Assembly: GCF_028641065.1 (NCBI RefSeq)
Contig: NC_073395.1
Location: 32,860,001 to 32,924,000, forward strand
Direction: 5' to 3'
Source of the DNA: Leucoraja erinacea
Lineage: Eukaryota
DNA: 64,000 bases
The notes under the pieces were generated by a model. The model saw only the letters and a list, made by a program, of their open reading frames with translations, was not told where the DNA came from and searched no databases. The translations under genes and the position numbers were made by a program. Below are positions 2,774-38,900 of this stretch, piece by piece (the stretch's first letter is position 1; each line of letters starts with the position of its first letter).

Positions 2774-2920
2774 CTTCAGATGATGTTGTGATTTTAACAC
2801 TGGTCTTTGGTCCAGCTCCCACCACTGTCTCAGCAAATGCAAACACTTCATATTTTGTAAATGGTAGCAGGTTAGTAAAAATATATGCCATCTCTCTGGT
2901 GCTGTTCTGGGACATTTGCC
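2774..2920 (-). CDS. PTPRQ: PTPRQ exon, C-terminal half of an FN3 repeat
   Basis: 147 nt, phase 1-1, tttag/gtaac. Encodes QMSQNSTREMAYIFTNLLPFTKYEVFAFAETVVGAGPKTSVKITTSSE, like human [23 protein letters not shown]. Confidence 0.92.
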
Positions 2921-11900: not shown

Positions 11901-14900
11901 GTGAGAAGGGATTAACTTGCAGAGACACAAGAGTCTGCAGATGTTGGAATATGGTGCAAAACACAAACTGCTGGAAGAACTCAGCGGGTCAGGCAGCATC
12001 TGGGAGGGGGGGTAGAGGGTGGAAGCTCCACAATGGATGCTGCTCGACCCGGAGTTCATCCAGTAGTTTGTGTTTTGAACTAACTTGAGACCTGCCATGT
12101 GTCTGATGAAATAAATGGTCTACTCCACTGTACCATTCCATAAATTTGAAAGGCCTTTTAAATACGATGTTATGATGTTTTGTTTTACTTCTTCATTGTT
12201 CAATAATCAGTAGCATTTGATATCGATAATTTGAAACAGTGGTGAACTAAGGACAGTTACAATATTAAAATTATTGGAATGAACTCACTGGTTTCTGCAG
12301 TTACCACATGACGAAAGCTACTAAAAGCTCCAATGCCTGCACTGTTCTCAGCTGCAACCTAATAAATGAAAAGATGTACAATTATTATATTTAATTCAAT
12401 TCAAATTATAAATTGGCAGCATTTATTGTGACAGAATAAACTTTGTGACAAATAAATACTATAAGTGCCTCATAATCTGAATTTGGGTTTGAAGAAAATT
12501 AAAAGTTCATTGACATGACAGAAATCAGTTTAGTTTATTGCCACGTGTACTGAGGTACAGTGAAAAGCTTTTGTTGCATGCTAACCAGTCAGCAGAAAGA
12601 CTACATGATTACAATCGAGCCATTTTATACATGATAAAGGTAAAGCCGGTAAAGTCCGATCAAAAATAATCCGAGGGTCACCAATGAGGTAAATAGTAGT
12701 TCAAGGCTGCTCTCTAGTTGTGGTAGGATGATTCAGTTGCCTGATATCAGCTGGGAAGAAACTGTCAAAAATGTGACCAATCATTTTTAGATGTTTTACA
12801 GCACAGCAGGTTTGGCGGCAATAGTTGTTGCTATAAAGATGTGTGAGGAAATGTCAGGCTTATTAATGGACTCATTTTGTAAGTGAACATTGTTATATAA
12901 TGAGCAAACAGTATTCAGAAGTAGATGATGTCTGTACAGATAATGACATTATTTTGACGGCATTTTTATTGAAGTGGACCATACAGCCTAGTGATGTAGG
13001 TCAGGAATAGTGGAGTGTGTAGGCATTATGCAAAATGAACACAGCCACTGTACAAATTGTACATATCCTACCTCACTGGGCTTCATTCAAAGAAATAGAA
13101 CCCATGAATTATTTTAGTACAAAATAATGTATAATTTTTTTTTCCAGACTTTTTTCAGATTATGACGCCTTCCAGAGAGCCGCTGAGAAGCCGAGGTCAG
13201 AGCCCCTCGGGTCGTAGCCCAGGCCTCACGGGCCAGAGGTGCAGCCTCGTGAGTCAATGAAGCCCGCAGGCAACAGCCCCTGGGTCTGCGGAGCCCGCGG
13301 CTGGGGCCTGAGTCGGCGCCATGGAGCCGTCTGGAGAAGGCCTGGCCTGCGAGAGTGGACAGGTGGGTGCGGCAGTCGATGGTGGTGCCGACTGACGGAT
13401 GAGGACGGACCACGTGGAAGTGAAGACGCCGCTGCCGGAGGAAGGAACAATGGATGACCCAGCGTGGGGGGAATGCTATGAGGGAGGGGGAGGGGGAGAG
13501 AACAAAGAGGGACCTAGTGTGGCAGTACTTTGTAACTTTGTAAGCAACCATTATGGGCAACTATTTGCATACCTTATGTATGCAAGCAAAGAATTTCACA
13601 AAGACTTGTCACATGTGACAATAAAGTATTCAATTGAATTCAATTCAATTCAATAAAATAAACCGTTTCCCTGAGGCAAGATGAGTAGACCCAACGATGC
13701 AGAAACAGATAACACCAGCAACCAAAAATATTTCAATACATATTCTTTCAAAAATAACATTTTTTCAAAGGTCAAAGCTTTTATGATTCTTTACATTCAT
13801 TATGAATGGAAAGACATACTGGATTGTTGATTTCAGATTATATTATGTTTTATTGGAAAAAACTATTAAAACTGCTCTTACACTGTACTAATCAAAGGTT
13901 AGCTCTCAGTTCATTCAATGGAAAATTGAGCCGTAGGATTTGACCAATTCCCAATTTTATTTTTAGTTGGTTTGTTTTGACCAGTTTATTGTTCTAAATA
14001 GACAATAGACAATAGGTGCAGGAGTAGGCCATTCAGCCCTTCGGGCCAGCACCGCCATTCCATGTGATCATGGCTGATCATCCCCAATCAGTACCCCGTT
14101 CCTTTTCCCCATATCCCCTGACTTTGCTATCTTTAAGAGCCCTATCCAGCTCTCTCTTGAAAGCATCCAGAGAACCTGAGGCAGAGAATTTCACAGACTC
14201 GCAACTCTGTGAGAAAAAGTGTTTCCTCGTCTCCGTTCTAAATGGCTTACCCCTTATTCTTAAACTGTGGCCCCTGGTTCCGGACTCCACCAAATTGTTC
14301 CAAATATTGATGAAAATCTGGGGATGTGTACTAATGTTCTGACTACATGTGGTCTGTGTGAGACTCTATTTTCCTGCTTCGAAAATATATAAGACATGAA
14401 GAAGCACAATTGAATTGAGCAAACAAAAATTGTTTAAAAACCATGACACGACTGCTATTCTTTGCAACACTCAGGACACTACTAGGAAAGGAAAAGACTG
14501 GGATATATATAAGGCTTTATATATATCACAGACTGCAGAAGTCCCAGCCTTGATACCTGTGGACTTTCACTGGTCACAGACCTCCAGCATGAATATTCCA
14601 CCATAACCTTTTGTCTTCTATCAGTAAGTCAGTTCTGCTTCCATATGTCGAAATCACTGCTAATCCTGAGCATTTTAATTTCCAGGATCAGTCTACCACG
14701 GGGAACGTTATCAAATGCTTTAATGAAATCCATGTAGACCACATCCACCACTCTATCCTTATCGATCACCTATGTCACCTCCTCAAAAATCTCAGCCAAC
14801 TCATTGTCTCTGTCAATGCAGTCTTTGTGATAAAGGAAGATTGCGAGTAAAATTTGCAGTGACTCGCTGGCGACTCGCTTTACAAAATACGGCAAAAGAA

Positions 14901-17900
14901 ACAGTCTTACCCGAATTTTATAAGTTGTGCCCGGTTTTAGATTGTTGAGAAGAAACTCTGTAGTGTCTGCATTTGTTGAAACTTGGATGAAGTCGGCTTG
15001 CTGTATAGGACAAACCTCTTTGTACTCCACCATATAGGATAAAATTCTTCCATTTGTCTGAGAAGGGATATTCCATGTCAGCATTATAGCAGTTGCACCA
15101 ATGAGGCCCACTGCCAGAGCATCAGGAGAGACTGCATCTGTTAAACAGAACATATTTCTCACCAAATAAAGAGCTTGCAGTGTTGCATATTCCTGAATTA
15201 TAGACCATTGTCTCAACAACTTTACAACATACATTATGAAGAAGAACAGAATAACATTAAGGTTTAATATTGCATCATATATGTTTCCACATTATCGGAG
15301 TATTCTGTCTACCACAAAATAAAACAAAAATAGTAGTCAGATTTTTTTGTGCACTGATATACTAATAGTTCCACATAGCTAAAAATGGTTTACAAGATAG
15401 TTACAAATCATCACGCAAAAAGAACTTTAATAAAGCTTTGATCTGGCAGTTCATGACACTTTTATGTTGCCTCAGATTTTTACTGCTGTAAGACAAACCA
15501 AAACAGCACTGCTCTATATTACTCAAAGTGTCCCCTGTGATGTCAATGAACTAAATGCTTTCCTCCTTGTCCTTCCCAAACTGACTGCAGCCTTGGACAC
15601 AACTGACCACACCATTTTCAGCAATGCTTCTCCATGGTCAGCAGCTACTTCTATTCAGATTTATCCATCCTCAGAGAATTATTGACAGTAATTCCTCTTC
15701 ATGCATCTGCACTCTTTGTAGCTCTTCCTCAGAAGGTCATACTTGACCTCTTTCAATAGCTTATCTGTGTACTGCCCATTTGGAAAATCAGTCAAGACCT
15801 TGACATTGGCTTCTCCATGTAAAGACATAAGGTTTGTAGGTTAATTGGCTTGGGTTTGTATACTTGGTATAAGTGTAAACTGCCCTAGTGTGTGTAGTAT
15901 AGTGTTAATGTTCAGGGATCGCTGGTTGGCATGGACGCGGTAGGCCGAAGGGCCTGTTTCCGCACTGTATCAGTAAAAAACCAAAATTAAAACTAAATTC
16001 AAGACTCACGACCTTTGTTGTCAAGTCTCAACAAGATAGTGTGCCACGTATGATCTAAAGTATCCTTGCTGGGATATCATTTTCATATTTTATATATCTC
16101 ATGGCTCACATCCCCAGTAAATAATAATAATAATAATGGATGGGATTTATATAGCGCCTTTCTAGATACTCAAGGTGCTTTACATCGCATTATTCATTCA
16201 CTCCTCAGTCACACTCGGTGGTGGTGAGCTACTTCTGTAGCCACAGCTGCCCTGGGGCAGACTGACGGAAGCGTGGCTGCTAATCTGCGCCTACGGCCCC
16301 TCCGACCACCACCAATCACTCACACACATTCACACACAGGCAAAGGTGGGTGAAGTGTCTTGCCCAAGGACTCAACGACAGTATGCACTCCAAGCGGGAT
16401 TCGAACCGACTACCTTCCGATCGCCAGCCGAACACTTAGCCCATTGCACCATCTGTCGATCCATGTAGAGTCATTTAAAAATCTTTATAAGTTAATACCT
16501 AAGCCCTGGGGACAAATTAAAGCATCTGAACACTTAAGGGCCTGTCCCACTTTCCCGGGCTGCTCACGAATTCTCCTGAGTTTTCCCCTTGATTCAAACT
16601 CAGAGAATGTTCGTAACGGGTCGGTAGATGTATCGTAGCGGCTCGTTATACCAGCCGTAGGTACTCAGGGCATTAAATGTTGCAATTTTTCTCCTCCCGA
16701 CTATCTTTTTACTCGTGGACATTTTTTATCAGGCTGGAAAAAACGTCCCGACTTACCTGATGCCCCGAGTACCTACGGCTGACATAACGAGCCGCTATGA
16801 TACATCCACGGACTCCTACGGCCTCCTACAGACCCGTTACGAGCATTCTCCGAGTTTGAATCAAGGGGGAAACTCGGGAGAATTCGTGAGCAGCTCGGGA
16901 AAGTGGGACAGGCCCTTAAATCTTAGGCCACGCTTGCTGCAAGCTGAGATTTTATTGTGATATGCCCCTAGTGGTCACTCAATGCCATGACCAGCTGCTC
17001 CATGGGCCATAAGATTTCCAAAGCAACATTACCCTCCTCGCCCCTTTCATCCTCCCTCCATGAATTTGTCACATTTCCTCTCCCCCAAGAGTGGCCACAA
17101 GGGGCACACCCATGTTCCCTCATCTCCTTCGCAGCCTCTGGTTCTCATGGAGAGACAGAGCTTCACGTTAATTGACTGCCAATGATTTTCTTATAACTAA
17201 GTGTGTGAATGATCCTGCATGTGCCTAATTTTACTTCGGAGTCACGTGAGTGACTACGTGAAGAACCCACCCAGCGCGCAGGCGCGGCATTACGTCAGCA
17301 GCGCAACAGCGGCAGCAGCTGGAGCCAGGCTCTCCAGCGGCAGCATAAAGACCAGACTCCAGGTAAGTGTCTTTTGTGTTTACAGAGTCGCTAAACGGAG
17401 GAAATACAATGGCTTCCCGAAAGCGACCAGCAAGGAGGACTGCCTGCCCAACTCCACCCGAGGAGGGGTCAATATCTGGGCGGCAGCCACCAGCGGCGGA
17501 GGAGCTGTTTCGACGCTCCCGCACACCCGAAGCCGAGCCGCTCCCTGTGCCGCCGATTACGACGCCCCGCACAGGGAGGAAAGCAACACGCAAATCAGAC
17601 CGGCCGGTGATCTCCGACTCGTCGGAGGAAAGGGAACGCTCTCCACCGGTGAAACGGGGAGACAGCCGCATCAGCTGCATGAGGCAGCTGCTTGAGCAGA
17701 TGCTCGACGAGGAGATGCGGGCTAGGCATCTCCAAGGAGGACGGGCTTTGGCCTCCTCCAAACCGTCGCCACACCCTTCTGTTCCCTCTCTGTTCGAGGG
17801 CAGCAAGGGAGGCCAGGACTGGGCTGGCCTATCACAAGGGCAGGCGGACGACAGCACAAGTATGCCGGGCGAGCTGGAGAAAGAAGAGCTGCTGGGTGTT

Positions 17901-20900
17901 GTCAGTCGGTACGCGGTGCCCCCGACGGCCGGGATGATACTACCACCAAGGATGGCAGCCAGTATCATCAACCTCTCCAACAAGCCCTTGCAGGAGAAGG
18001 TCGTACAGGCGGCCCTTGACACCTATACAGCGCCGCAAAACTGCGAGGCGCTGCGGGTGAAGACCGTGAACGGCCAAATATGGAACCAGCTGGGGCAGCA
18101 GATCAGGACTCAGGAGGTCAAAATGCAACGAATCCTGAAGCTCCACACTGCAGCCATTACCGCCTTTGCTCGGTCCGTCGGAGACGCAGAGCTCTCTACA
18201 CCCCAGCAGGATGTGCTGGCGTTAATGTGCAACACGCAGTACGAACTTAATAACCTCCGGCGTGAAAACATCAGGCCTGCCCTCAACCCCAAATACGCGG
18301 GCCTCTGCAAAGCTCCGGCGCCAGAAAGGGAGGCGCTGCTATTCGGAGCAGACTTGGCTAAAAAGCTCAAGGAATTGGAAGAGGCGGCCAAACCTGTAGG
18401 CCTTATGAGGGCAGCGCCAGGACCGAGCAGGGTGAAGACACCCAGTTGGCAGCACGCCTCGGCATCCACCAGTAGGTACCGAGCTGGTGAAAGCCTGGTG
18501 ACCGCCTCCCACTACCCCCAGAGCTCTTTTTTAGAGCGGGGCCCAGGGCGGAGCCGTGGGAAGATACGCCGCCCCACCGCAGCACCAACAAGGACACCCT
18601 CGGGCCAAACCCATCGGAAACGCTCCCAGAAATAAACATGGAGGTAGGTGGGTCTGGTTCCTGTCGACATACACAGACAAAGGGTGTTGTATTAACAGGA
18701 GGGCGTTTGAGGTTCTTCAAACACATGTGGTGCTCCCTTACTAACAACGAGTTTATACTCAACAGTATCAGTGGATACAAAATTGAATTCAAATCAGGCA
18801 TAGAACCGCCAGTTCAGCATATGCCCCAAAGGGTATTCCTTCCCTCAGATTTAGAGAAGGTAGAAGGACAAGCTGAACTAGACAGGCTCGTGGCCAAAGG
18901 CATCATAGAAAGGACCAGACACGAGCCGTTGGAATTTGTATCCAATATCTTTCTTAAAACTAAAAAACATGGTGGATGTCGTATTATCATTGATTTGACA
19001 TCACTTAATCAGTCTGTTGAGTATCAACATTTCAAAATGGAGACGTTTGTCACTGCCAGACTACTGATCTCCAAGGGATACTTCATGGCAAGCATAGATA
19101 TCAAGGATGCTTACTATTTAGTACCCATTCATAAGGATCATTACAAATATCTGAAATTTATCTGGATGGGGCAACTATGGCAGTAAAGAGCAAGGACACA
19201 TGCACTACGTCTAAGTAGGGGCCATTATGACCGCAAAATGGATTTACCCGCTGAAGCAAAATCAGAACTTCAGTGGTGGGTGCATAATATTTGGCACAGT
19301 TACAGTCCTATCACCGTCACCAATCCTAACATAACCATCGCTACGGATGCCAGTGCTTTAGGCTGGGGAGCTACTAACTCTATAGCCAGCACAGGTGGCA
19401 GATGGACTAACATAGAGGCATCGCTACTTCAATCACTTGGCATAAACTACTTGGAGATGCTCGCCGCATTTTATGGGCTAAAAGCATATGCATCCGATAT
19501 GCGGCATGTGCATGTCAGGGTTATGATTGATAACACAACGGCGGTGTCTTACATCCAGCACATGGGTGGCATAAAATCAGTATCATGCGACAAATTGACT
19601 ACTATAATCTGGCAATGGTGTGTCGAGAGACATATTTGGCTATCAGCTGCCTACTTGCCAGGCAAGCTAAACTCAGTGGCGGACACCAGGTCACGAAAAT
19701 TCAATGACAACATCGAATGGATGTTAGACCCAAAAATATTTGCTATAATTGTCAAGCAATACGGTACGCCAGATATAGATTTGTTCGCATCTAGACTAAA
19801 TCACCAACTACCCATGTATGTGGCTTGGGAACCAGACCCAGAGGCAGCAGCGGTAGATGCCTTCACGCTGGACTGGGGAAATTTATTTTTCTATGCTTTC
19901 CCTCCCTTCTGCCTCATCAGTCGGGTACTCCAGAAAATACAAGCTGACTCAGCTTCAGGTGCTCTGGTCGTACCCGACTGGCCTACCCAACCATGGTTCC
20001 CAATTTTCCACGACATGGTGGTAGAGTCACCTATGGTTTTTCACAGCCACCCACAATTATTGACTCACCCAGTATCTGGCATAAGCCATCCATGCCACCA
20101 AAAATTGAACCTCCTGGTTTCCAGATTCTGAACAGACCTTACCAGGGATTGGGGTTATCAGAACGAACAATCACCACCATGTCGGCATCCCTGCGAGTTT
20201 CTACCAAGAAACAGTACTTGACCTACATCAGGAAATGGGAACAGTACTGCCTGAATGCAGGGACATCTTACAAGACAGCTTCGATCAAGGACGTGCTGGA
20301 GTTCCTGGGCCACTTGCACCATGACCTAAAGATGAGCTACAGTGCCATCAACGCAGCTCGAAGCGCCCTGTCCGCATACCTTATGCCCTCAGGACATCAT
20401 AATATTGGATCCCACCCCCTGGTTATCAAACTCCTTAAAGGGATTTATAATACCAAACCCCCTACACCTAGATACACCCATGTGTGGGATGTTAGTGTAG
20501 TTTTGCAACACCTTCGAGGTTGGCCTCCGGTGGGATCCTTGAGCCTGGAGCAGTCCACTATCAAGACCCTCATGCTCATGGCGCTAGTCTCTGCTCAGAG
20601 GGTTCAGTCGCTGCATCAATTAAGACTGGACTACATGGTGACCACCCCAGATTCCATTACTTTTACCATGCCGGGGTTGGTTAAACAGAGCAGGCCAGGT
20701 ATATCCAACTCTCCGTTGATCTTCCGGGCTTACCCTCCAGAACCCAGGCTATGTGTTGTGACCCATCTACATGATTACATAGACACAACCCAAACACTTA
20801 GAGGGAGTGAGAAAGCCTTATGGGTCAGCCATAGAAAGCCTTTTGGACGGGTTACCAGCCAGACAATATCTAGATGGTTGAAACAGGTCCTAAATACCGC

Positions 20901-23900
20901 AGGGATTAACACGAATGTTTTTAAATCCCATTCAACCAGGGCAGCGTCCACGTCAGCGGCAATACGGATGCAGGTTCCCATAGACCACATCCTTAGTACA
21001 GCGGGATGGTCAAGGGAATCGACATTCCAAAAGTTCTACCATAAACCGCTGATGGAGAAGGACGTCTTTGCGGCGAAAATTTTAGAATCCGCAAAATTAT
21101 AATTTATAGCCCAGGGGAGCTATTTTTGTTATTGTCAAATAAACATTTTTGTTTTAAAAAACTAACAAATTCGTTGGTCTTTAGATACCACTTCCTCCCT
21201 CGATGATCTTTCGGCAGTGAGTGATATAACTGTTACACGGTTTGAAATCACAGACCTTTGAAGTCTTCACGTAGTCACTCACGTGACTCCGAAGTAAAAT
21301 AGTGAGATTAAACGAGTACTTACCAGTACGAAGTTTGATCTGTATTTTATGAGGCGTTACGATGAGGGATTACGTGCCCTCCGCTCCCACCCTCATTGTA
21401 TGGATCAAACTCGGGCTGATGTCTCATTAATCTTTACTTCAATATTGTGTCTACCTGTGATTCCACACCGCTGCTTGGAAGTATGCCGCGCCTGCGCGCT
21501 GGGTGGGTTCTTCACGTAATCCCTCATCGTAACTCCTCATAAAATACAGATCAAACTTCGTACTGGTAAGTACTCGTTTAATCTCACTATTAATCATATA
21601 AGATAAACCCATAACCTGGAGCAACTCATCGGATCTCTGGCAGCATCTCTGGAGAAAAGGAATAGGTGATGTTTTGAGTCGAGACCCTTCTTCAGACTGA
21701 GCATCAGCCCCTGATCGGTCTTGACTGGAAACTTCACCTACTCTTCTTCTTCAGATATGCTGACTGACCCGCTGAGTTACTCCAGCTTTTTGTGTCTATC
21801 TTCGATGTAAAGCAGCATCCTGTAGTTACGTCCTACATAATTAATCATGTAAGTCTGGTTTAAACTCTTCATAAAGAGACAGAACGGCATGGTGACCACA
21901 AATTTATGAAGGAGCTGTTTTGGCATTAATATCATCTTCCCGCGTTACTACGGACCTCTTTATAATGGATGTTGGTTCTAGTGGATGGAGCGTTCCCACA
22001 GTAATCAGACACCACTATCTCTTTAAGAATACAGGCTGCTAGTTACACTGCAGAGGTCATTGAAATTGACAGGCAATTGTTTTGATCGACACTTGTGCAG
22101 TGATATTTTATTAAATTATGTAACAAACTGCTAATGTATTTTTAACTTGCAGCAACAAAAATAATTTTTTAGCTTCACAAAGAACTTTGTATTTGAAAAC
22201 AACTCGCTATTCCACAAAGTGACCGCTAGGTGATTGGACCAGATCCCTTACGCGTTTAATACAGACAGTAGGCAATAATGGACACCATTCTCCCCTATGA
22301 TCTATTATATGAGGGTTGTCTGTACAAATATCTAAGTAAAATCCAATTGATAGACATGCCCATCGCATAATGCATTGTACAATCCAGGGTTATATCAAGT
22401 GCATAGATAACCACGTTAATGTTTAAAAGCAACATACAATAATGTCCAGAAGAATTAAAACATAACTGCCTCAGTTAACAAAAGAATATAATCTTTTTCT
22501 AGTTTTTTTAGGAAACTAAATTTAAATTATAAAGAACTCAAGTTTCATAAATAACTTGCATATCTAATTGTACAATGATCAATAAAAATGAACACAAAGA
22601 TTCACTTAGCAGAAATCCACACTTTTTGCATGTAATGGTGGAGAAACTATTGGCATTGTATCAATCCGCTGTGAAGGTGACATCGGAATTTATACACATG
22701 TGTAATTTATATGGAAATCTTGAAGCCACTGTCTGTAATTCATCCCTGTTTTACAGGCTGTGCAGTTTTGAAGACATCAGTCAGCCCAACTGATGAGAAC
22801 TTGAACTAATCACTGCAAAATAATCAGGTAATATCGCACAGACTTGTATGAGGTCTGAATAAGTGTTCAATGGTTCACTTAATCTTATTGGTAGATTGCA
22901 ATTCCCAGACATGTACCACGTATATTTTGAACCAATAAAAACTATACCATGTTTTAAAAATTATGCAAGAAAATTCAATTTCTATCCTAAACTGTTTCTA
23001 CCATCCATCTGAAGATAGATACCAAAAGCCGGAGTAACTCAGTAGGCCAGACAGCATCTCTGGGGAAAAGGAATAGGTGACAAATAGGTTCGAGACCCTT
23101 CTTCGGATTGAGAGTCAGGGGAAAGGGAAACAAGAGATATAGAAGGTGATATTGACACATATAGAACAAGTAAATGAAAGATATGCAAAAAATAATGATG
23201 TTAAAGGAAACAGGCCATTGTTAGCTATATGCTAGGTGAAAACAAGTTACAGACAATGGGACTCAACAATACGACTTTGAAGCTAGTTCAACAACTTGGG
23301 TGGGGGAGAGACGGAGAGAGAGAGAGGGAATGCAAGGGTGACTTGAAGTTAGGGAAATCAAAATTAATACTGCTGGGTTGTAAGCTGCCCAAGCAAAATA
23401 TGAGGAGCTGTTCCTCCAAATTGCATTGGGCCTCACTCTGACAATGGAGGAGGCCCAGGATTGATAGGTCAGTGTTGGAATGGGAAGGGGAATTAAAATG
23501 TTTGGCAACCGCGAGATCAGGTAGGGCCAGGCAGACTGAGTGAAGGTGATCAGCAAAACGATCGTCCAATCTTTGTTTGTATAAGAGTCTATACCTTGAA
23601 CAACGGATACAGTACATGAGATTGGAGGAGGTGCAAGTGAACCTCTACCTAACCTGAAAGGACTGTCGGGGTCCCTGGATAGAGTCGAGGGAGGAGGTAT
23701 AGCGACAGGTGCTGCATCTCTTGCAGTTGCAGGGGAAGGAACCTGGGGAGGGGGTAGTTTGGGCGGGAAGGGATAAAAGTTAACATGAGCAGATCAAAGT
23801 TAACCAAATATAACGGATCTTGATGCAGGGGCTATAACTTGGGAGAAGACACATTCATTGATTCGCTTAACTTGTAAGTGAATTTAGAGGATTTTGAAGA

Positions 23901-26900
23901 TACGGCATTAATTATGTCACTCCATTGTTTTGGGATGTGTGCTGAGATAGAGGGACCCCATGTCTCAGGAAAGCAAAGGTAGGCAGGATCATTGTTGCCA
24001 AGTACACTGTGAGCTTCGTGCTGGGTTTGGGATCTTGATCTTCAAACACTCTTTCCGTCAGATGATAATAGACTGCACTAACAATAACAAGGGAATGATT
24101 AATTTTGTCACTGATGACTTCCTTTGTTGAGTGTTTACTTCTCCAAATGGTTAGTAATCTACGTTTCCTGGGTCTCACCATGGACCTTTATTGATAGGGG
24201 TATATTGCAGAGGGGAGACACGTTGGTTATGACTTTTGATTTGTGCCTGCTCAGTGGCCCTCAAATGGACAATAGACAATAGGTGCAGGAGTAGGCCATT
24301 CGGCCCTTCGAGCCAGCACCGCCATTCAATGTGATCATGGCTGATCATCCCCAATCAGCCTTCTCCCCATATCCCCTGACTCCGCTATCTTTAAGAGCCC
24401 TATCTAGCTCTCTCTTGAAATGGTTGCATATCTAAGCAGACCCTTACCCTCCATGCCCTTATCATACAACATTTGGAAAATAACTTTGCATAAGTGATGG
24501 TAAAACAAATTCCCCAGGTTGTTTGACATCTGTCAGGATCTGTAAGCATGCTTAGTAGCCTCCCCATGCATGTTCACAAGTTCACCAGTTATAGAAGTAC
24601 AATTAGGCCATTTGGCCCATCAAGTGTACTCCGCCATTCAATCATAGTTGATCTCTGCCTACTAATACCATCTTCCTGCCTTCGCCCCATAACCCTTGAC
24701 ACCCATTCTAATCATGAATTTGTCTGTCTCTGCCTTCAAAATATCCACTGACTTAAGGGTAAGGGTAAGGGCTTTGAGGGTCGCTTACATACTGTTGCAC
24801 AATTATGCCTTGACTGTCACTGTCTGTTATCATTGTATGTATGCAAATTGCTGTGAAATTCAAATAAAAAGATTTAAATCAAAAATATCCACTGACTTGG
24901 CCTCCACAGCCCTCTGTGGCAATAAATTCCACAGATGAACTTCCCTCTGACTAAAGAAGTTCCTCCTCACCTCCTTTTTAAAAGAGTGCCCTTTAATTCT
25001 GAGGCTATGGCCTCTGGTCCTAGACTCTCCCACCAGTGGAAACATCCTTTCCACATCCACTCTATCTATGCCTTTCATTATTTTGTAAGTTTCAACGAGG
25101 TCCACCCTCAACCTTCTAAACTCCAGCGAGTAGAGGGCCAGTGCTGTCAAACGCTCATCATATGCTAATCTACTAATTTCTGGAATCATTCTTGTAAACC
25201 TCCTGTGGACCCTCTCCAGAGCCAACACATCCTTCCTCAGGATTTGGGACCCAAATTTGCTCACAATACTCCAAATGCGGCCTGACCAACACCTTATAGA
25301 GCCTCATCATTACATCACTGTTTTTGTATTCCTGTCCTCTTGATCCAAATGCTAGCATTGAATTTACCTTCCTTATGTGTTCCTTATCTATATTCATCAA
25401 AGATGGGAGGAGCAGAGTCTAATTTGAGGAAATAAGCTCCTGGCACCATGGTAAATGACTGTCCTTTGCAATTAAGTTTTGTAGTAAATTTTTAACAATC
25501 ACGTTGTGTGCTTCATAAGAGAATGTCTGGCTCACTAACTTTCACAAGCAGAATAAACTATAAAACCATTTTTTCCTGCAGATTTTATGACTATTTCAAT
25601 ATGCTACATTCAATAAAATTCTTAAAATCTTTACACAGCTGTTGTATCTTAAATCTTTGCAAAAAAAGCACCTATAGTTTCATTTAAAGTCAGTTGGAGC
25701 TAGTAGAAGTTGGCCGGACTTATTGATCATCACAAGTCCACTTACAAGTTTCATTCGTTGTAAATGATCTGCTGACAGACTTGCTAAACGATGACGAGAC
25801 TGAGGAGACGGTGGCAGTGTACTTTATACCTGGGGTAACATCAAAAAGGTCAGCCTGGAATAACACAAACACAAAATAAGCAATTCAATTGATATGAAAT
25901 TAAAATAAAAAAAGATCTTATTAAGCTTACATTCTTCATCTTTTCCTATCCAATTTCATAAGAATAATTTTCATTCTCTTAGTTGCAACTGCTTTCAGCT
26001 TACGGGAGCTCTCAGTTTCAATAGACATTTAACCAACTATGTAAAGTACAAATGAATTGCAGAACATGAAACAGATTGTTTAATTAAAAAGAGTACCTTT
26101 GTCCTTGCGGTCCCAAATATGAATGCCGTGAAAGATAAAATGAAGAGAAGCTTCATTATTGCATCTTACTTATCACCTCTGTTGGACAAATTCAGCCGTG
26201 CACTGCCGACCGGATTGAGATAGGAGTCATGTCATTAAACATTTAAAGTACTTACTGGCTAGGTACGTAATTAATATCATTGGCTGAATATTAGCACTCT
26301 GCTCTGTTACACTATACATGAATGGCTAGGAGATGTTTAGAACAAAGTAAATCTTAGGCCATACTCTGCTCATTTTGACAAAATCAATAAAACTGAGTGA
26401 GGCAAACAAATGTATGTTTAGGTGCAATTTTACCGCTGAACATAGATATACATAAAACTCTCTACTGTAGAAATTTATCACGCTCCACTAGTGATAGGCA
26501 TTGTGAAAGTCACACCTTGAAACTACCATCCCCCATGTTTGTGATATTAACAGAGCCTTGGTCAGGAATGAGATCCACTTTGTAATGAACATCATTTCCA
26601 GCGGGTCCTCTCCAATGTAAAGTAAATCCTCTGGCTGAAATATTTGAAACTTCCAACATTTGAGGGTTTTCATGCTCTTGAAAAAAAAAAGGAACATTTT
26701 ATTATAAGATTTAATCAATATGAAACAATTGTTTTGCAATGCAAAAAATATTAGTTAATTTCTTGCGCTGTTACCCAGAGAGAGTCAAGTTTATGTGGAC
26801 TCATCAGGTGTAGTTGCACGACAGATGAAAATCCGACCATGGTATGGAAACGTAGGGACCTTCAGGGCTCTGAATTTTACTGATCTGTGCCAGAATTACA

Positions 26901-29900
26901 AGATCACCTGGATAAATTTCAGATCATACCATGCCCCAGAGTCTCATTGCACAACTTTAAGACTGAAGAATCCTGTTGACCCAACCCAGAAAAGAGATGA
27001 AATGATCCTAACAACCCCTTTAATAAAGAGGCCACGTGGATAGGGAAGGTTTGGAGGAATATGGGCTAAACACAGGCAAGTGGGATTAGTTGTTTGTGTG
27101 CGATTACAAAGTCAAGAGTGAACCATTAGTCTTTTATTAAGATATAAAGGAGAGAGAAAATCATAAACAATCATGCATTTCAAAATCATCCAAGTTCTGC
27201 TTGCAGTAACAAAACCGACCGGTTGCCAAGGGCAGCCCAAAACCCGGACTGGATTACTAGTGGAATGTGTGGCATGCGTAATATGTGTAGTGGAGATTAC
27301 ATAAGCATGGATTAATATAGTTAATCTACACTAGTGTAGATGGATTACAGGATTGAAAAAATAATTTTGAATCAAATGGAAAATTGTCAACCAGAAACTA
27401 CGATTATTAGTTTCCCTGATCTTTGATCATCGTGAAGCCTTTGGACCTCCATCAGCCACTTATCGACTATTTAAAATCCCTCTGAAAGTCATTCCATTCC
27501 TATGATTCTACAAAATACTTGCTGTTTTCATTAGGTATCTCCAATTGAAAATCTCTACAGAGAATGTAGTGGCGACTCTCAGGACTCTCATGCCCAGGAC
27601 TATTGCACAAACCAGGCACGTGCCGTCAGGGTGGGCAAGGTAGGCACTGCCTACCCTGACTAAAATTATAACATAGTAATTACTAAATATAAATAGTAAA
27701 GGCGTGGGAGAATTATGGCTATCTAAGCGATCGATCTCTTACGTACGCACAATTCTCCGTGCCTTTCATCCCCAGCGCTTGCAACACTTGAAGATCTGTG
27801 CAGCCCACGTGCCGTCGTCGCTGCTTGAAGCTGTCAATGACAAGCGGGGCTGAAAGCAGCTGAAATTCTGCCTTTGCAGTACTGGGCATGTGCAGCAGTC
27901 TACTGCTTGCGCAGCGCCAGTTTCTTGGCGGGTTTTTCAAATATGGATTGCCATTATCTTAAGCGTATTTTAAGAAACAAAGAGAGAAGAATGGAGTTTG
28001 TGTAATGTGGTAAGTACATTTCTTGGTGCTATATGTTTTTAAATACCGTATTTCCCGGGGTGGGGCCCGGAAAGGGAGAGTTCCTTTCACAGCATTTGGA
28101 GTGTCTAGCCCGGGGTAAAGTTGCGGGGAGGGCAGGAGCATTGTGAGGGAGGGGGTCGGGATCATGCCAGTAACCCAATCGCGATGCTCCTTGCACAGAG
28201 CCACCGCATTGAGGCCGGGGAGGGAAGCAGCTCGTGTAGCTGCGAGCGGCCGCCGGGCCGGACAGCGGAACCGGCCGCCACCTCAGCTCCTTCTGCCGGC
28301 CCCCGTTCACCTCTGGCAGCTCTCCGTCTGAAAACCTCTCTCCTGCCACTCGCTGGCCTCACTCATGTCAGCCGCTTCCCGCAAATCCTTAAATCCCGAC
28401 GGCCCGATCAAGGGACCAATTGAGGTTACTTGGCTGTCGGAATTTAAGGATTTGCGGGAAGCGGCTGACATGAGTGAAGTCGGCGAGCGGCAGGTGAGAG
28501 GTGTTCATACGGAGAGCACTGCCAAAGGTGAGCGGGCCGGCAGTAGGTGCTGAAGTGGCGGCCGCTCACAGCCACCCGAGCTGCTTCTATCCCCGGCTAC
28601 AACGCGGTGGCTCTGCGTCCGGAGCGCTGCGACAGTGGTGAGTGAGTGAGTTACTGGCACTATCTCCGACCCCCCTCCTTCTCAACGCTCCTGCCCTCCC
28701 CGCAATTTTAACCCCTGGCCAGACTTTCCACACGCTGTGAAAGGAACTCTCCCCCCAACTGGTCACTTGAACTAGTATTATCATTCAATAAGATGACAAC
28801 TGATGGGTGCGCTCCCATTTTTCCCACCATCTCTCCACCTGCCATCATCCTTTACCCCCACCCATTCAGTAATTCAGAATGAAGGAGAATTGGAAGCCTT
28901 GGGCAAATTGAATTGTTACTGTCTTTATTTTTATTTTTTATTTTTACGGAGAGAACAATCTGCGCATGCGCGGTTTAAGTTATTTTTTAAAAAGCCGACT
29001 GACTGCCTACTACCCTGAGTAATTACTCACGGCACGTGCCTGGCACAAACCATTTGTTCGCTGACCTCCCTTTGTCTGGTACGTCAGTGAACATGTAAAC
29101 CACAGCAAGGTGCTGAAACAGGAGGAGGAGGAGAGAGAAGAGATGTCTCCATGGGAAATAATATCCACCCGGCTCATTCTGACATGAAGTCCCTGACCTA
29201 AACCAGGAATAGCGTGTGGTTTGATTTTGTTTTGATAAGTAGATCCTCACAAAAAACTACCAGCGTGTTAGAAAAATCATAATTCTCAGAACAGGGTAAG
29301 GATTGAATTGTCAACAGCTTTCAGGATGCCAATGGCGATAAACCACGAGTTCCTTCCTTCACAGAGAAGAGGACTCATGCACCAATTTTCATTTTCAAGC
29401 TATGGGTGTATCTCATGTCATATTGGCTGCAAAAATCAACTGATCAACTTTGTTGAATTCTTTGCCTTCCATGTCTTTGCCTATCTGGGCGCTCAGATGC
29501 AGCTTCGCTCTGTGGCTGTGCCCAGCCCTTCAAACCTACAAAAATAAACTAATTGATTGTAAATTGATTCAGGGCATTTGGTATGAAAGATTTGCTTTTT
29601 GCACAATGGACCTCTCTTGACGACGTGATTTCAGTAGCAGCACCTCAGAAATTCTTGTCAACTTTTCTGAAGTTATGAGAGAGGGTCATGAAAAATCTGA
29701 GAAAATACAGCATATCATTGGGTGGTTTAAACGGGCATCTGCAGTTCCTTCCTACACCATGTCTTTGGTCATTGCTTGGAGGATATAGCAGAATAAGAAT
29801 AATATTGAAAACTCTTACTTGTTTTTAATCTCTTTTGGATTCCTTCACTCGCATCCATGCCTTTAACTGTTTTTATTTGGAAAACGTACTCTATTCCTGG

Positions 29901-32900
29901 AATTAGATCATTGATTTTGATATTATTGCCTCGTAAAGTTGTTCTGTCTGTTGTTTCATTGATTCCTGGTGAGTAATAACTTAACTGTGTATAAAATAAA
30001 AAGTACAATTTGGGTCAATAACACTTTATTTTACCTGATGTAATGTAATTATAACAATATGATAAATGTTCGTCATTTCTGAAAATGCTTGAAATAAGTT
30101 AATTTGCTAAGCCTGTAAAAGAAAGTGGTACTTCCAAAATAACTTATAATAATTTTCTACATGGTGACTTGAGAAACTACCATGTAAGGTATTTAGCACA
30201 AAGTCCGAAAACAAGTCTACAAATAATGTTTATATTATAGTACAGTAGTTTCAGAAATGTTTATCACATAAACAGTAGGTTAAAATTAGAGATATTAACT
30301 GTATGAACAATTGGATATATATTAACAATATTAACTATTAGAGATATATATCTTTAGATTCTGTTTCTTCTTACTATGAAGTCATCTAAAATACCCTTCA
30401 GCTAATGGTACATAAATATGCTACTCACTTCAAGTGATCAACTGTTATCATGATAGGTAATAAGAGATTCAGTTATGAAATAAAACAAACACATTAAGAT
30501 TAATGGTAATTAAAATAATTAATTAATACATATAATGGTAAATTAGATATAAAAGCCACAATCAGTTGTATACTTGAAAAAACATCTACAGAACACCTAT
30601 TTAATTATTAGGACAACATTGCAACGTGGCTAAAGAAATATATTGTTCGATAATTAATTTTGAATGATAAGAAACTCAATCTAGGCCAGTGTAAACCCAC
30701 ATTGTTAGATGAGCCATATAATGATGCTTGTTCATTAAATATTAAAATATGGCTTCATTTCCACTGAAAGATCATCATTTGCTTATCACAGTCAGGCAAC
30801 ATTAACTTCACAACCATGAAACTGAAAACCCCACCTAGTAACCTGCTTTCCGTAGAAGAAGTTGAATTTCAAATATAAAAATGTAGCTGAATTTGACACG
30901 TCAAAGTTGATGCTTCACTTACCTCGAATATATCAAAATCCCCTCTTGGAAGCTTCCAATATAAGTATACAGTGTTCTCATCCAGTTCAACAAACTGCAA
31001 ATCTACTGGTGGTTCAGGATCTAGGGAATACATACAATGGCTTATTTTGATAACTTATGTATTTTTGTAGAATATTCCACAATATTTCCCAAAATGAATA
31101 TGAGCCTATAACAATGGTTATAGCTCCAGATATTCAAATATATGGAGCTTCAGATACTCAAATCAAATGGTCAATTGTACAACGTCAATTTTGTGATACT
31201 GATCCAGGGCCCGCACAGAAATAGGGATTGGTCTGATCGTGTTTAATCTGATCTACTGCTTGGCCTGGAAACAATGCTTATGGTTCCCAAGCATCTCCCA
31301 ATGCAAGCACAGTGGGCAATGCCCAACAAGGAGGCCTCCAATTGACACATGGCTGATGACAATTTGTGCTATCAAGACCCCATTTCACTGTTTTAAATAC
31401 CTCTGACGATCACAGCCAAAATTGATTTAAACAAGAAAACTTAAAGTATCAAAATTAATTAAAAGTGCATTAAGCTATTATTAATTAACTACAACTGCAA
31501 AATAAACAAAAGTAATCAAAAGCTTATCTAAACATATCTTGTTTATGAAGATTAGATCGCATCCAAGGACAAAAAGGCTAGCTGACAGAGAGTAAATTGG
31601 TTCGGGAAGGAAGGCACTATGGTGGAAGGCTTCACTTGGACTGGAGGCCTGCAGGAACTATACTTCAAGATTGGTGTGCAACCGTCCAGAGTGGTTTAAT
31701 AAAATCAGGATGGGAGACCCCTTCCACCCCTGCAACGGACTGTTCCAGCTGCGACGGTCAGGCAAACGCCTCCGTTGCCATGTGGTGAGAACGGAGAGGT
31801 TGAGAAGGAGTTTCTTCCCAGAGGCAATTCGGACTGTAAACACCTATCTCACCAGGGACTAACTCTACTGAACGTTTTTCCGTCCATTATTTATTATGTA
31901 AAAGAATATGTGTGTTATGATTGTGTTTATAATTTGTTTGGTTGTTTTGTTGTTTGTCTTTTGCACAAAGGTCCGCGAGCATTGCCACTTCATTTCACAT
32001 CTCGTATGTGTATGTGACAAATAAACTTGACTTGACTTGACTTGCATGGGTTCCAGAGAGTGCTAGCTGACTCCAGAGAAAATTGGCTTAATGGAAGGAA
32101 GGAAAGGGTGATGTGAGAAGGCTGGTTTTTGGACTGGAGGCCTGTGACTAGTAGTATGCTTCAGAGATTGGTGTTGGGCCCGTTGCTGTTTGTGGTTTAT
32201 ATCAATGACTTAGATGAGGATGTGGAAGACATGATTAGTAGGTTTGCAGATGAGTGGTATTGTAGATAGCGAAGATGGTTATCAAAAATTACAGTAGAAT
32301 CTTGATCGATGGACAGAGCAATGTGAATGGAGTTTAATGCAGATGAGTGTGAGGCGTTGCATTTTGGCAAGTCAAATCAGGATAGGACTTCACAATTAAT
32401 GGCAGAGCTCTGGTGAGTGTTGTAGAACAGAGGGATCTAGGAGCTAAGATACATAGTTCCTTGAAAGTGGTGCCACAGGTAAATAGGATGGTTAAGAATG
32501 TTTTCGGCACATTGGCCCTCATCCATCAGCATAATTAGTCCATAAGTTGGGATGTGATGTTACAGTTGTACAATAAATTGGTGAGGCCACATTTGGAATA
32601 TTGTAGGTACACAAAAATGCTGGAGAAACTCAGCGGGTGCAGCAGCATCTATGGAGCGAAGGAAATATGTAACGCTTCAGACTGTGTTGGAATTTTGGAA
32701 TATTGTGTTCAGTTTTGGTCACCCTGCTACAGAAAAGATAACATTAAGATGGAAAGAGATGGTTCTCATAGGATTTAACATTTAGCATTAAATCACATTA
32801 CTGGCATTGTGTACATGTACATAACAACTCAACGTACAGGTTATAACAATGTAGACTGATTATTAGACATTTTACTTTTGTAACAAAACTCACAGGTTGT

Positions 32901-35900
32901 TATAGTAATTGTCGTGGGATAGCTCTTCTTTGTTGCACTTGTGGTCTCAATAGTTATAGAGTAGGCGATACCTGGCATTAACTTATCATAATGGTATGTT
33001 CTGCACAATATGAAAATATATAAAATTAAATTGTTACATTCTTATAGTTATATCCTTACAGCAAAGCTTCTGCATTGTTGTAGCTCAGTAAGTTGTCCAG
33101 TTTAGTTCAAGAACTTTATTTCAAGAACAGTAAATGATCAGTATTTCCATTTGAATTCATAATCAATTAGAAGCACGTTATGAAGTTTCATGTGATATGA
33201 TCGGTATTTCACAAATGACTCCAAAGCCCAATAACAATAAGGTTAGTATGATTAAACGTTCAGCAGAAATAAAATTCCTATATCTCTACCCATATACTGG
33301 AAAAAGTAATTTTACAAATAGTAAAGATAATTAGACAAAGAAATATTGTAATGCAGATTTGCTATGGTAATAGGTACACAAAATTGCTGGAGAAACTCAG
33401 CGGGTGCAGCAGCATCTATGAAGGAAATAGACGACGTTTCGGGCCGAAACCCTTCTTCAGACTGTGGTAATATATTCATTTACATCATGAAACATCATTT
33501 ACATCATGCAGGCTTTAAATCCTTTGAATTCTCAGAATAATACATTTAAATCCTCAGAATAATCTATTTCAAAACACCTGATTTACTTTAAAAACAATGA
33601 ACTGCAGATGCTGGTTTACAAATGAAAACACAGAGTGCTGGAGTAGCTCAGCAGGTCAGGCAGCATTTCACAAGTACATGGATAGGTGACATTTCGGGTC
33701 AGGACATTTCTTTCAACTGATTATAGGTGGGGGGGTGGGGGGTGGTAAAGAAAGCTGGACGAAAGGAAGGATGGGATAAAGCCTGGCAGGTAATAGGCTG
33801 ACACATGTAGGGAAGATTATTTTATAGGCAGATGGTTGGACAAAGGCCAGAGATAAAAAAATCCAGAAGGTGTTAGATAAATGGATTGAAGTGTGAAGCT
33901 AGAGGAAGGAATGCAGGTGGAAGGGGAGTGGGAGGGGAGTAGTAGGTGCATGTCCAGGTGAGGGAGACGGGAGGGGGGAAAGTAGGGGGGTTCAACAGGG
34001 GGTGCAGATTGGCGGTTATGTGGGGGAAGAAGGGAGAGGGGGAGGGTTATGTAGTTACCTAAAATTGGAGAAATCCATGTGCATACCGTTTGGTTGCAAG
34101 TTATCCATGCAGAATATGAGGTGTTGTTTCTCCAGTTTGAATTTAGCCTCACTTTGGCAATGGAGGAGGCCGAGGACAGAAAGGTCAGTATGGGAATGGG
34201 AAGGGGAGTTAAAATGACCAGGTGGGGCACAGGGAAGTGGGGAGAGGGGGGTGGTGGGGGTGGGGCGTGGCGGCAGGTCTCCGGTTTTCCGATGTGGCCT
34301 CCTGTATATTGGTGAGACCGAGCGTACACTCGTCGACCGTTTCGCCGAACATTGGCCTCCAGGTTCTCCGTGTTAAAATCCATTTTAACTCCTCTTCCCA
34401 CTGCAAGTTTTCTGATTGTGCCTAGTTTGGTGCACTGTAAATACTGTGGACAGACCCAAATACTACAAATTTGACAAATTGACGGGCAACCGTGAAAAAT
34501 TAGATAAATGGCCTGAGCTAATAGGTGTATATCTGAGGAGATCTGCTTCTCATCCCAAAAAGATTTAAGTATTTTCTGAATAATGGTGAGTGGCAAGTTC
34601 TCTTTTGTGAAAAAGGGGTTGAAATAAATGAGGTAGAAAGTATGTGTTTAGGCATAATAAGCTGGTGTAACTCAGCGGGACAGACAGGCAGCATCGCTGG
34701 AGAAAAGGAATAAGTGACGTTTCCGGTCGAGACCCTTCTGTAGACAAATAATATGGTTATATTAACACTGAAGTCAAGATAAGAGTTCTGCAATCAGTTC
34801 TGTGGACTGCATGTCAGAAGGGATACACTGGCTTCGGAGGAGGGGCAACATGGATTCAAAGATTAATTGACTTGATTTCGGAAGTGGCGGCGCTGTTAAC
34901 AGCTGCGGCTTGCCTGCAGTCCGTCTGTCTTTACTTTTTGTTGTTGTTTTTTTTGTCTTGTTTTGGCTAAGTTTTAGTTTGTTGGGTTGTGTTATGGGGT
35001 GGGGGGGGGGGTGTGAAACATGTTTTTTTTTCTCTCCCTTCGGGGGAATGTGGCTTTTTCTTGTAATATCCCCCTCGCTTCTCTGCCTCCGGCTGCGCTG
35101 AGGCCTAATGGCGGAGCTGGCGGTCTCCAACCTGCGACCGACCTCGAGGCTCCGGAGGCAGAGCCAGCCAGAACTTACCAGCGCGAGGCTGGCTGACTTC
35201 GGGGCCGAGGCAACGGTGGCCCGACTCGCTGATGCGGCGTTCCAGCTTTCGGCAGCGGCCCGGAGCTGAGACTGCGGGACTCGGAGCTGATGCAGCGGCC
35301 CGGGCTGGGGCTGCAGGACTCGGAGCTGATGCAGCGGGACTCGGAGGCTGATGCAGCGGCCCGGAGCTGTTGCAGCGGGACTCGGAGCCGAGGCTGCGGG
35401 ACTCGGAGCTGGGGCAGCGGGACTCGGAGCTGGGGCAGCGGGACTCGGAGCTGGGGCAGCGGGACTCGGAGCTGGGGCAGCGGGACTCGGAGCTGGGGCA
35501 GCGGGACTCGGAGCTGGGGCAGCGGGACTCGGAGCTGGGGCAGCGGGACTTGGAGCTGATGCAGCGGGACTCAGAGCTGGGGCAGTGGGACTCGGAGCTG
35601 GGGCAGCGGGACTCGGAGCTGGGGCAGCGGGACTCGGAGCTGATGCAGCGGGACTCGGAGCTGAGGCTCTGGCAGGCGGACTCGGAGCGGAGACGGCGTT
35701 CCGGCTTTCGGCAGCGGCGACACCACCACGGAGGTCCGCTGGACTGGAGAGCGACATCTTCGGCCTGGATCGATCGCCTCAGCGCAGAGGGAGAACAGGG
35801 AGGGAAGAGACAGAGACTAAAACTTTTGCCTCCATCACAGTGAGGAGGTGCTTGGTGAACTCACTGTGGTGGATGTTAATTTGTGTTTATTGTATGTTTT

Positions 35901-38900
35901 GTTATTTATTGTTACTGTGTATGACTGCAGGCAACATAATTTTGTTCAGACCAAAAGGAATCAAATTCAAATTCAAATTTGGTTGTACAGACTAGATTTG
36001 CCTTATATTTGATGACATGAAATTACCAGGTGACCTATTAAATTATTTCAGGTATGTAAAATAATGTATAGGATAAAGGGAAGAAATTGTATCCTCTGGT
36101 TTGTGATCCCAGACAAGGAATTGCAACTTAAAAATCAACATTCAGCCATTGAGGGATGATGTCAGGAAGTCCATCTTCTTCACACAGGCAGTGGGGGAAG
36201 TCAAGTTCATTCCCAGGGCTAGATCAAATATAAATTAAAAAACTTAGATTGATGATTTATTTTGGCAAGATTATTATACCATGGGGAGGCAGAGTCAAGG
36301 TAGGGATCGTCCGTGATGGAAGTGAGTGGCAAATTATCAAAGACCTTGACAATCCTACTCTTATACTGTGGACAAGTGTAGCTGCCAACCTCTGCAAACA
36401 ACAAATGTTAAACGCAACTGATCTGGATTGTTGGAGTTGATAAGAAAAACTTTGACCATCACTCCAACAGAACATGTAATTTATCAAAGGTTACACAGAA
36501 AAGCTGGAGAAACTCAGCGGATGCAGCAGCATCTATGGAGCGAAGGAAATAGGCAACGTTTCGGGCCGAAACCCTTCTTCAGACTGATCGGGGGCGGGGG
36601 TGGGCGGGGACAAGAAAGGAAAAAGGAGGAGCCCGAAGGCTGGGGGATGGGAGGAGACAGCAGGGGGACTAAAGAAGGGGAGGAGACAGCAAGGACTAAC
36701 AAAATTGGGAGAATTCGATGTTCATGCCCCCAGGATGCAGACTCCCCAAACGGAATATGAGGTGCTGTTCCTCCAATTTCCGGTGCTGCTCGCTGTGGCC
36801 ATGGAGGAGACCCAGGACAGAGAGGTCGGAGACGGAGTGGGAGGGGGAGTTGAAGTGCTGAGCCACCGGGTTGTAATTTATCAACTCTTGCTATCTTTAA
36901 CGTCCACCTGAGTGGACAGAAAGATCCTCAGCTTTAAATTGTCATCATAAATAAATACCAGCACGTTGATGCTGTTCCATGGCTAGTTTGTGCACTCGTT
37001 GACAAAGAAATGAAAGTTCATTATCACATTATGGTACTATGTCACAATTTCCATAAATTATTTAAAATTTAACTGGTTATATATTTTGTATTTTATCAAT
37101 TTAATTTCAGATATCTGAGAAAGTAACATGTTTGTATTATTAATTTTAAGAAATTCTAGTTTCAAAAATGCTCTATCTTACCGTGAGCGGGTAAATGGAA
37201 TTTCAACAACGTGGTGCATAGATTTGCTGGAGACTGTTAGATTATAGCCATCAAATACATAAACAGCTTCTGGCCAGCTGAGTGTGATTGAATCCGATGT
37301 CTTGTTATAATTCAGATACTCCACTGGACTTGGCACTAAAACAGCAAGGATGAACAATGGTTGTGGGCTAACGTGGATTCACCAAATTTACAATAGTACA
37401 TATTGTCAGAATTAGGAAGGATGTGTTAAGAATGATAAATCTTTTTACTAATGATAGGGCAGTAGATGCAGCACCATTTGGAAACAACCAAAAATAATCC
37501 AGTGTTTAAGAAGGAACTGCAGATGCTGGAAAATCGAAGGTACAAAAAAATGCTGGAGAAACTCAGCGGGTGCAGCAGCATCTATGGAGCGAAGGAAATA
37601 GGCAATGTTTCGGGCCGAAACTCTTCTTCAGACTGATAATCCAAGGAGGATGGTTATAGTAGCCGACTTCTGGAATAGGAATAGTGTTATGTAAATTCAG
37701 AAAATGATTAAAGGACAGGTGTGCTTTAATGATATTTTGTTCACTCCAGTTTTATATATAGGATGCCTGAATGATATCCAGCTGAGAAATAAGTCTTGAT
37801 ACATGAACACAGCCATTTTAAACGATTTACTCATTGCCAAGAGTAAATAACGTAAATCAACTTCACCCCAATTTATTGGATTCGATTCATTATGAGTTGG
37901 GTGGGCATTAAAAAATATTTTTATTGAAATGAATGAAAATTCTTCTTTATATGGTTAACTGTGGCAGTATAATTTAGCTTTGTTTTTATACAACTGCTGA
38001 GACTGTAGACAAACTAAAACAGACTTTGGATCAGAATTGCTATCCACCGTACTCCAAACTTACCCCAAGGCAAATTACTATCCTAAACATTATGCTTCAA
38101 CTGAAATTTCATTTCATGAAAAAATATCCAAAAAATGTAATTATCTAAGAAGCCTTAAACATCACCTTCCCCAACCCATTAGGGTTGAGCATGATTATCC
38201 ACAACATTGGTGCCTTGTTCAGTTTCAGTTTCAATTTCAGTTTAGTTTATTGTCACGTGTACCAAGGTACAGTGCAAAGCTTTTTTTTGCATGCTAACCA
38301 GTCAGCGGAAAGACAATGCATCATTACAATCGAGCCATTCACAGTGTGCAGATACATGATAAGGGAATAACGTAAAGCGCAAGGTAAGGCCAGTAAAGCC
38401 TGATGTTTTAACCTAAGATATTCTCTAAACCCCAGTTTCAGTCCAAATGTATTACATTTTAATTCCTCATCCTCCTTTCTACCCTATTGCTACCTTGTTT
38501 AATTTTCAGGTTAAAGAACGATGTACAACTTTTGCATTTTGGCATTGCATTTTGTTTCTACATCCCCAACTGAATCCTCTGCCTTCAATACACCACCTCT
38601 ACTTCTAAAGCTTTCAACTACCTATATTCCACTCCTGCAAAGGCCATCATTAAACACATTAATCCACACACATCTTAAATCTTCAAAATCCAAAAAAACA
38701 TTCCCTTCAATATTTTAAAGTTTGGAAAGGATAATATAGATTTAATTTATGAATGGAAGAAAGCTCAAACATTAACATTAGCTGAAGGCTACCGAGCATT
38801 TAACCATTCCATCTACGCCACTGAAATGAACAGAGGAAAAATTATAATGTATTTAAAATAAAGTTAAAGTGAAACCTTACATGTACGTATTAATTGTGAA

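Follow-up and report, generated by a model that had tools for sequence, protein, structure and literature searches.

Two candidate leader exons, one inside a split fibronectin type III domain, in the PTPRQ gene of the skate Leucoraja erinacea

In a gene of the skate Leucoraja erinacea, an exon resembling the first coding exon of mammalian PTPRQ lies within an intron that divides a fibronectin type III (FN3) domain. This arrangement raises the questions of whether the gene has one start or two and why the mammalian protein begins with half of an FN3 domain. An earlier note, made from the sequence alone, had proposed that two promoters give a long and a short receptor and that the half-domain of mammals is a vestige of the long one. 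We followed up this proposal in a window of 64,000 nt (contig NC_073395.1, positions 32,860,001 to 32,924,000 of the forward strand). Coordinates below refer to the window unless stated otherwise, and statements drawn from the literature refer to the accessible parts of the papers cited.

Gene identity and exon map of the long form

By comparison with homologs, 24 coding exons were mapped on the minus strand of the window, from 60281 to 2774, with AG/GT at all internal junctions. Joined together, they make a long form of 1394 codons with no stop, which is 82% identical to the sawfish PTPRQ model P0157 across 1393 positions. The in-window translation is 82-91% identical to named batoid PTPRQ models and 39-42% identical to PTPRQ of mammals and amphibians, and is colinear with them exon by exon, which identifies the gene as PTPRQ. 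The nearest homolog is the skate model P0167, with 48 of 52, 34 of 36 and 67 of 75 residues identical in the exons here called A and B and in the next exon, respectively. The stretch has a single match in the genome. The best genome matches for the phosphatase domain (80-86%), which carries WPE and not WPD, lie at contig positions 32769617-32776071, about 85-90 kb past the window end, on the same contig and strand; the sawfish homolog P0157 has one Y_phosphatase match in Pfam.

The first coding exon of the long form (60198-60281, minus strand) comprises 28 codons from the ATG at 60281 to the phase-0 donor gtaaga, and matches sawfish and ray N-termini with 75-76% identity by tblastn. It encodes a hydrophobic stretch (hydrophobicity 2.9), which is likely a signal peptide. 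Exons 2-4 (57992-57846, 57182-57065 and 56767-56510, minus strand) would encode two FN3-like repeats, judging from motifs and exon phases, and they are followed by a C-type lectin domain on exons 5 and 6 (55471-55254 and 52780-52600, minus strand). Exon 5 matches Pfam Lectin_C above the cut-off (E 1.2e-05), exon 6 alone gave no Pfam match, and in the sawfish model P0157 Pfam recognises a full C-type lectin domain at residues 224-333. Exons 7-16 (29819-50734, minus strand), each with AG/GT and no stop, carry seven FN3-like repeats, of which four are single-exon 1:1, two are 1:0:1 and one is 1:2:1. Exons 17 and 18 are the exons A and B described below. The shared exons 19-24 (15137-14911, 12358-12289, 9153-8954, 6233-5996, 3675-3547 and 2920-2774, minus strand) encode the first complete FN3 repeats of the mammalian-type form. 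By motifs and exon phases, the long form would have about ten FN3-like repeats, counted through to the split one. It adds 1021 residues ahead of exon B, and the short form adds 20.

The B-C loops of the repeats shift in type at the internal start. W4G4, the PTPRB-type loop code (PMC5336234), is found in the split domain and two upstream ones (26516-39398), versus W7G4 or W7G3, as expected of PTPRQ (W7G4Y or W7G3Y), in all three loops found downstream of the split domain (2774-15137), and a short form would begin near the border between these two FN3 types. A PTPRQ-like sequence of Ciona savignyi in the supplement of the same paper has, judged by eye, W4G4-like loops near its N-terminus. A protein search with the single exon at 14911-15135, among candidates of at most 2000 residues, gave no match.

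Several other elements were noticed in the window. A tyrosine recombinase frame at 19948-21102 on the plus strand (Pfam Phage_integrase, E 1.1e-07) lies within a GC-richer intronic stretch, beside three long open frames (17367-18635, 18491-19186 and 19187-20131) that had no match in Pfam; this stretch is likely a DIRS-type retrotransposon. A 247-nt tandem duplication (42384-42835, 98% match) adjoins exon 10 and copies its last codons (tblastn match at 42592-42524). At 35261-35667 is a GC-rich tandem array, in which a 21-nt unit is repeated about 20 times.

The split FN3 domain and the leader within its intron

Exon A (161 nt at 26676-26516, minus strand; acceptor aag, donor gtgtga, phase 1 to 0) and exon B (109 nt at 25854-25746, minus strand; acceptor cag, donor gtaagt, phase 0 to 1) were found where the earlier note had placed them. 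The former encodes the first part of the split FN3 domain, and the latter encodes the rest and is common to both forms. FN3 domains split 1:0:1 are a described pattern in R3 receptor phosphatases (PMC5336234, Chicote et al. 2017). Searched against Pfam, exon A alone matched fn3 over positions 2-42 of 84, with an E of 0.00097 that falls short of the curated cut-off, and exon B alone had no match. A broken reverse-transcriptase fragment, presumably LINE-like as classed by eye, lies just downstream of exon B at 24860-25418 (minus strand).

Structure predictions were run on homologs, the skate model P0167 and the carp short form, rather than on the window's own joined sequence. For the P0167 segment comprising A, B and the next repeat, the mean pLDDT was 89.2, and the first domain was predicted as a seven-strand beta sandwich spanning residues 6-86 (block pLDDT 72-95), with Trp in strand B and Tyr in strands C and F. 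The exon junction is predicted to fall inside strand E, exon A contributing strands A, B, C, C' and the start of E, and exon B contributing the rest of E, F and G. The model resembles FN3 tandems of neogenin, LAR and PTP delta in the PDB (E about 1e-11 to 1e-9). These predictions favour the earlier view that the joined halves fold as one FN3 domain (pLDDT about 90 in this close skate homolog). In the carp short form, which starts at exon B, the half-domain blocks had pLDDT values of 51, 53, 48 and 69, and the next repeat 84-94; without exon A, exon B is predicted to be unstructured, a loose half-domain of about 36 residues. The contrast between the joined domain and the orphan half is uncontrolled, since the species differ and the alignments had 12 and 10 rows, respectively, and we regard it as suggestive.

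Between the two exons, a signal-peptide-like stretch of 20 codons, MKLLFILSFTAFIFGTARTK, runs on the minus strand from the ATG at 26156 to 26097 and ends at the phase-0 donor AAG/GTACTC, in agreement with the leader exon of the earlier note. It ends in G-T-x-x-T-[KQ], as do the exon-1 leaders of mammalian PTPRQ. Every open phase-0 stretch of 15-30 codons from an ATG to a GT, on either strand of the window, was ranked (736 in all), with 11 distinct exon-1 leaders from 12 mammalian short forms as the reference set. The leader ranked first by global alignment, second by end-anchored score and 51st by hydrophobicity, and its scores were matched by 2 of 3000 shuffles (global) and 1 of 3000 (end-anchored). 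An unrelated plus-strand stretch at 39431-39490 reached a global score of 21.9 versus 25.7 for the leader, and outscored it in the end-anchored comparison. The long-form leader scored 1.2 by global alignment against the mammalian leaders, and the idea that the internal leader is a duplicate of it was unsupported.

By a matrix built from the gene's own 24 donors, the leader donor scores 1.5 bits, close to the lowest of them (range 1.3-11.9), a score reached by 23% of 3531 minus-strand GT sites; two real donors of the gene are also low (1.3 and 1.9). Stronger donor-like sites are present just upstream of it, at 26255 and 26169. A frame of two codons starts at an out-of-frame ATG (26164) and has a stop that overlaps the leader ATG (TAATG), and the intron contains 11 upstream ATGs ahead of the leader. 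The candidate promoter and 5' UTR of the short form would occupy 26157-26515 (minus strand), an interval with a CCAAT at 26283, GATA motifs at 26480 and 26175 and no TATA match; no CpG island was found at the internal start (o/e 0.20-0.66 per 200-nt bin, window mean 0.45).

Use of the leader as a cassette exon was ruled out, since no upstream AG yields an open in-frame exon, and with no in-frame acceptor the leader can serve only as a first coding exon. It thus combines the features of an alternative first exon, namely an ATG, a hydrophobic core, a donor in phase with exon B and no in-frame acceptor. Exon A ends in phase 0, as do both leaders, and exon B can therefore be spliced to exon A or to the internal leader; the join of leader to exon B is open for 393 codons. 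RNA was examined in 8 of 24 runs, in which blanks carry no weight on expression. Four runs over 25690-27020, with coverage near zero, gave 2 reads in total, at about 25780-25900, crossing the acceptor of exon B, and in four runs over 14500-33300, swamped by repeats, no exon junction was among the 15 joints listed of 1926.

We consider it probable that the two hydrophobic leader exons, at 60281 and 26156, are alternative starts for a long and a short PTPRQ receptor. An upstream promoter would give the long receptor, in which the leader, a C-type lectin domain and about ten more FN3 repeats add some 1000 residues and the internal leader is skipped. An intronic promoter would give a mammalian-type short receptor, whose mature N-terminus would be the loose half-domain (about 36 residues). 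Both receptors would have the downstream FN3 repeats, membrane span and WPE-type lipid phosphatase in common, and a switch of start would alter ectodomain length and ligand binding and leave catalysis unchanged. To this extent the interpretation in the earlier note is supported, with the predicted single FN3 fold, the non-cassette leader, the upstream leader at 60281 and the fact that both forms are modelled within one species, in human and in common carp, in its favour; the part concerning mammals was mostly not borne out, as described below.

A different reading is that the internal leader is an ancestral exon now unused in this lineage, or a chance look-alike, and that cartilaginous fish make the long receptor only. 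The weak donor, the competing donor-like sites, the upstream ATGs and the nearly equal score of the stretch at 39431-39490 are consistent with it, and none of the 43 retrieved cartilaginous-fish models uses the leader (A is joined to B in 42 and skipped in one). However, two real donors of the gene score about as low, and automatic gene models often miss first exons expressed in rare cells. Moreover, the ATG, frame, hydrophobic core, phase and G-T-x-x-T-[KQ] ending are intact in the same intron where mammals start, and a 60-nt stretch out of use should have decayed over such a distance. We regard an unused or fortuitous leader as unlikely and retain the two alternative starts as the preferred reading.

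Long and short forms among vertebrates

Among 336 retrieved proteins, 165 contain a homolog of the exon after B, comprising 138 long forms (A joined to B), 20 short forms (leader and B) and 7 others; the ratio of long to short is meaningless, as the isoform sets are redundant, the models mostly automatic and the searches seeded with long forms. The 138 models with the A-B join are spread across jawed vertebrates, and long forms were found in sharks, rays, chimaera, sturgeons, gar, bowfin, cyprinids, amphibians and a lizard. The long PTPRQ models in RefSeq from sharks, rays, sturgeons, gar, cyprinids, amphibians, ruminants, bats and macaque have the same lectin and FN3 extension and the same A-B join as the skate. 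Chicken and zebrafish PTPRQ are also long forms, in which the joined domain has been numbered 16, and the half in human and mouse was left unnumbered (PMC5336234). Many bony-vertebrate long models differ from the skate in having one more FN3 before exon A; this repeat, present in chicken, amphibians, gar and cattle, was not found in 26677-29818 (best tblastn E 0.12). The macaque models and one pangolin model likewise have no such repeat, which may be optional or may have been lost more than once.

Short forms are found among the models of mammals, carp and arapaima. In the Conger conger model P0027, a hydrophobic leader-like segment lies between the two FN3 halves (about residues 1005-1041) and is probably an internal first exon mis-modelled as a cassette. 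Compared with mammalian leaders, the teleost leaders have global scores of 13.5, -0.6 and -2.5, and the skate leader 25.7; because their likeness to mammalian leaders is weak or absent, homology of the teleost leaders rests on position and phase. As far as sequence comparison can tell, the last common ancestor of jawed vertebrates likely already had both starts, and several mammalian orders retain the long form, the supporting proteins being nearly all automatic gene models. The arrangement is likely an old two-start design and not a relic.

The upstream exons might instead form a separate secreted lectin-FN3 gene, fused to PTPRQ by annotation, with the internal leader as the sole true start. 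Such a gene would fit the separate models, named 'tenascin-R-like' and 'fibronectin-like', that cover the upstream part in baboon, pangolin and Xenopus, and also the curated human and mouse RefSeq entries, which begin at the internal leader. But exon A stops mid-strand at a phase-0 donor and the domain is whole only with exon B, the A-B join is made by 138 models across jawed vertebrates, and alternatively spliced human 5' exons are on record (PMC5993672). We judge a separate gene very unlikely, and prefer one gene with two starts.

The earlier note had further held that the orphan half-FN3 of mammalian PTPRQ is a vestige, and had suggested a search for a homolog of the 161-nt exon upstream of human or mouse exon 1. 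The homolog was found, in the 2332-residue human model P0248, which we assume to be the UniProt sequence Q9UMZ3. This model is like the skate long form in that A is joined to B, but unlike it begins 60 residues before the junction, without leader or lectin domain. Human and chimpanzee exon A are identical to the skate exon at 23 of 52 aligned residues. The join is made in models of human, chimpanzee, macaque, colobus, gelada, cattle, buffalo, muntjac, bat and pangolin; in 22 mammalian models of primates, ruminants, bats and pangolin, chosen for having exon A, this exon is intact in all, and 8 of them have the lectin motif. Judged from these models, the mammalian orphan half is a by-product of starting within a domain that is still coded whole.

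Muroid rodents gave a different picture. The PGxxY motif of exon B is present in none of 10 muroid sequences (a count that omits two further isoforms of species already included) versus 15 of 16 other mammals, the shrew being the one that lacks it. Identity to outgroups in exon B is 0.51 in muroids versus 0.57 in other mammals, and in the next domain 0.80 versus 0.81. No rodent was among the 39 matches of the exon A search, in which 110 candidates were scored, and none of the 14 rodents among the 15 listed of 42 cluster members has exon A. The half-domain looks decayed in muroid rodents and one shrew only, and these sequences hint, as a lead, that the long form was lost in muroids, which as a single clade count as about one event. 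That mammals at large lost the long form and kept the half-domain as a vestige could draw on these muroid data, but at the level of gene models it is refuted by the intact exon A joined to B in primates, ruminants, bats and pangolins, and we consider it very unlikely. For muroids the vestige reading may hold.

Relation to known PTPRQ forms and significance

RefSeq gives 45 exons for human PTPRQ; with the alternatively spliced 5' exons of Schraders et al. 2010 the number is 58 (PMC9310072, PMC4412678, PMC5993672). The human protein (DFNB84A/DFNA73; NP_001138498.1) has a leader of similar length and ending to that of the skate, joined to the same half FN3. The survey of R3 phosphatases (PMC5336234) defines their ectodomains as FN3-only and in its accessible parts mentions neither a lectin domain nor an internal first exon. 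In the mainly open-access literature covered here, no paper on a lectin-bearing PTPRQ, or on the internal leader outside mammals, was found; the internal start may already have been described by Schraders 2010, Seifert 2003 or Nayak 2011. The long models are already known from databases and the human 5' exons from print, and alternative first exons that carry a signal peptide of their own are known as a kind. What is new is that a cartilaginous fish has an intact leader of the mammalian type, by which the two-start design would go back to early jawed vertebrates, together with the hint that muroids have lost the long form.

For mammals, the phosphoinositide phosphatase activity of PTPRQ and its location in the hair bundle are known, and it is still debated whether the protein is mainly surface coat or enzyme (PMC9900141). 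In kidney, PTPRQ gives a band above 250 kDa (PMC5547938). It is conceivable, although we put it forward tentatively, that jawed vertebrates have since their origin had a short receptor and a lectin-tipped one longer by about 1000 residues, that the latter was overlooked because the internal leader is where the curated references for human and mouse start, and that it is functional in primates and ruminants and lost in muroids. If this is true, the mouse is a model for just one of the two, and human variants in the upstream exons could be of clinical relevance. The internal start accounts for the odd half-domain at the mammalian N-terminus, and, PTPRQ being a deafness gene, two conserved ectodomain lengths, one of them lectin-tipped, would give a basis for the size variants seen on blots.
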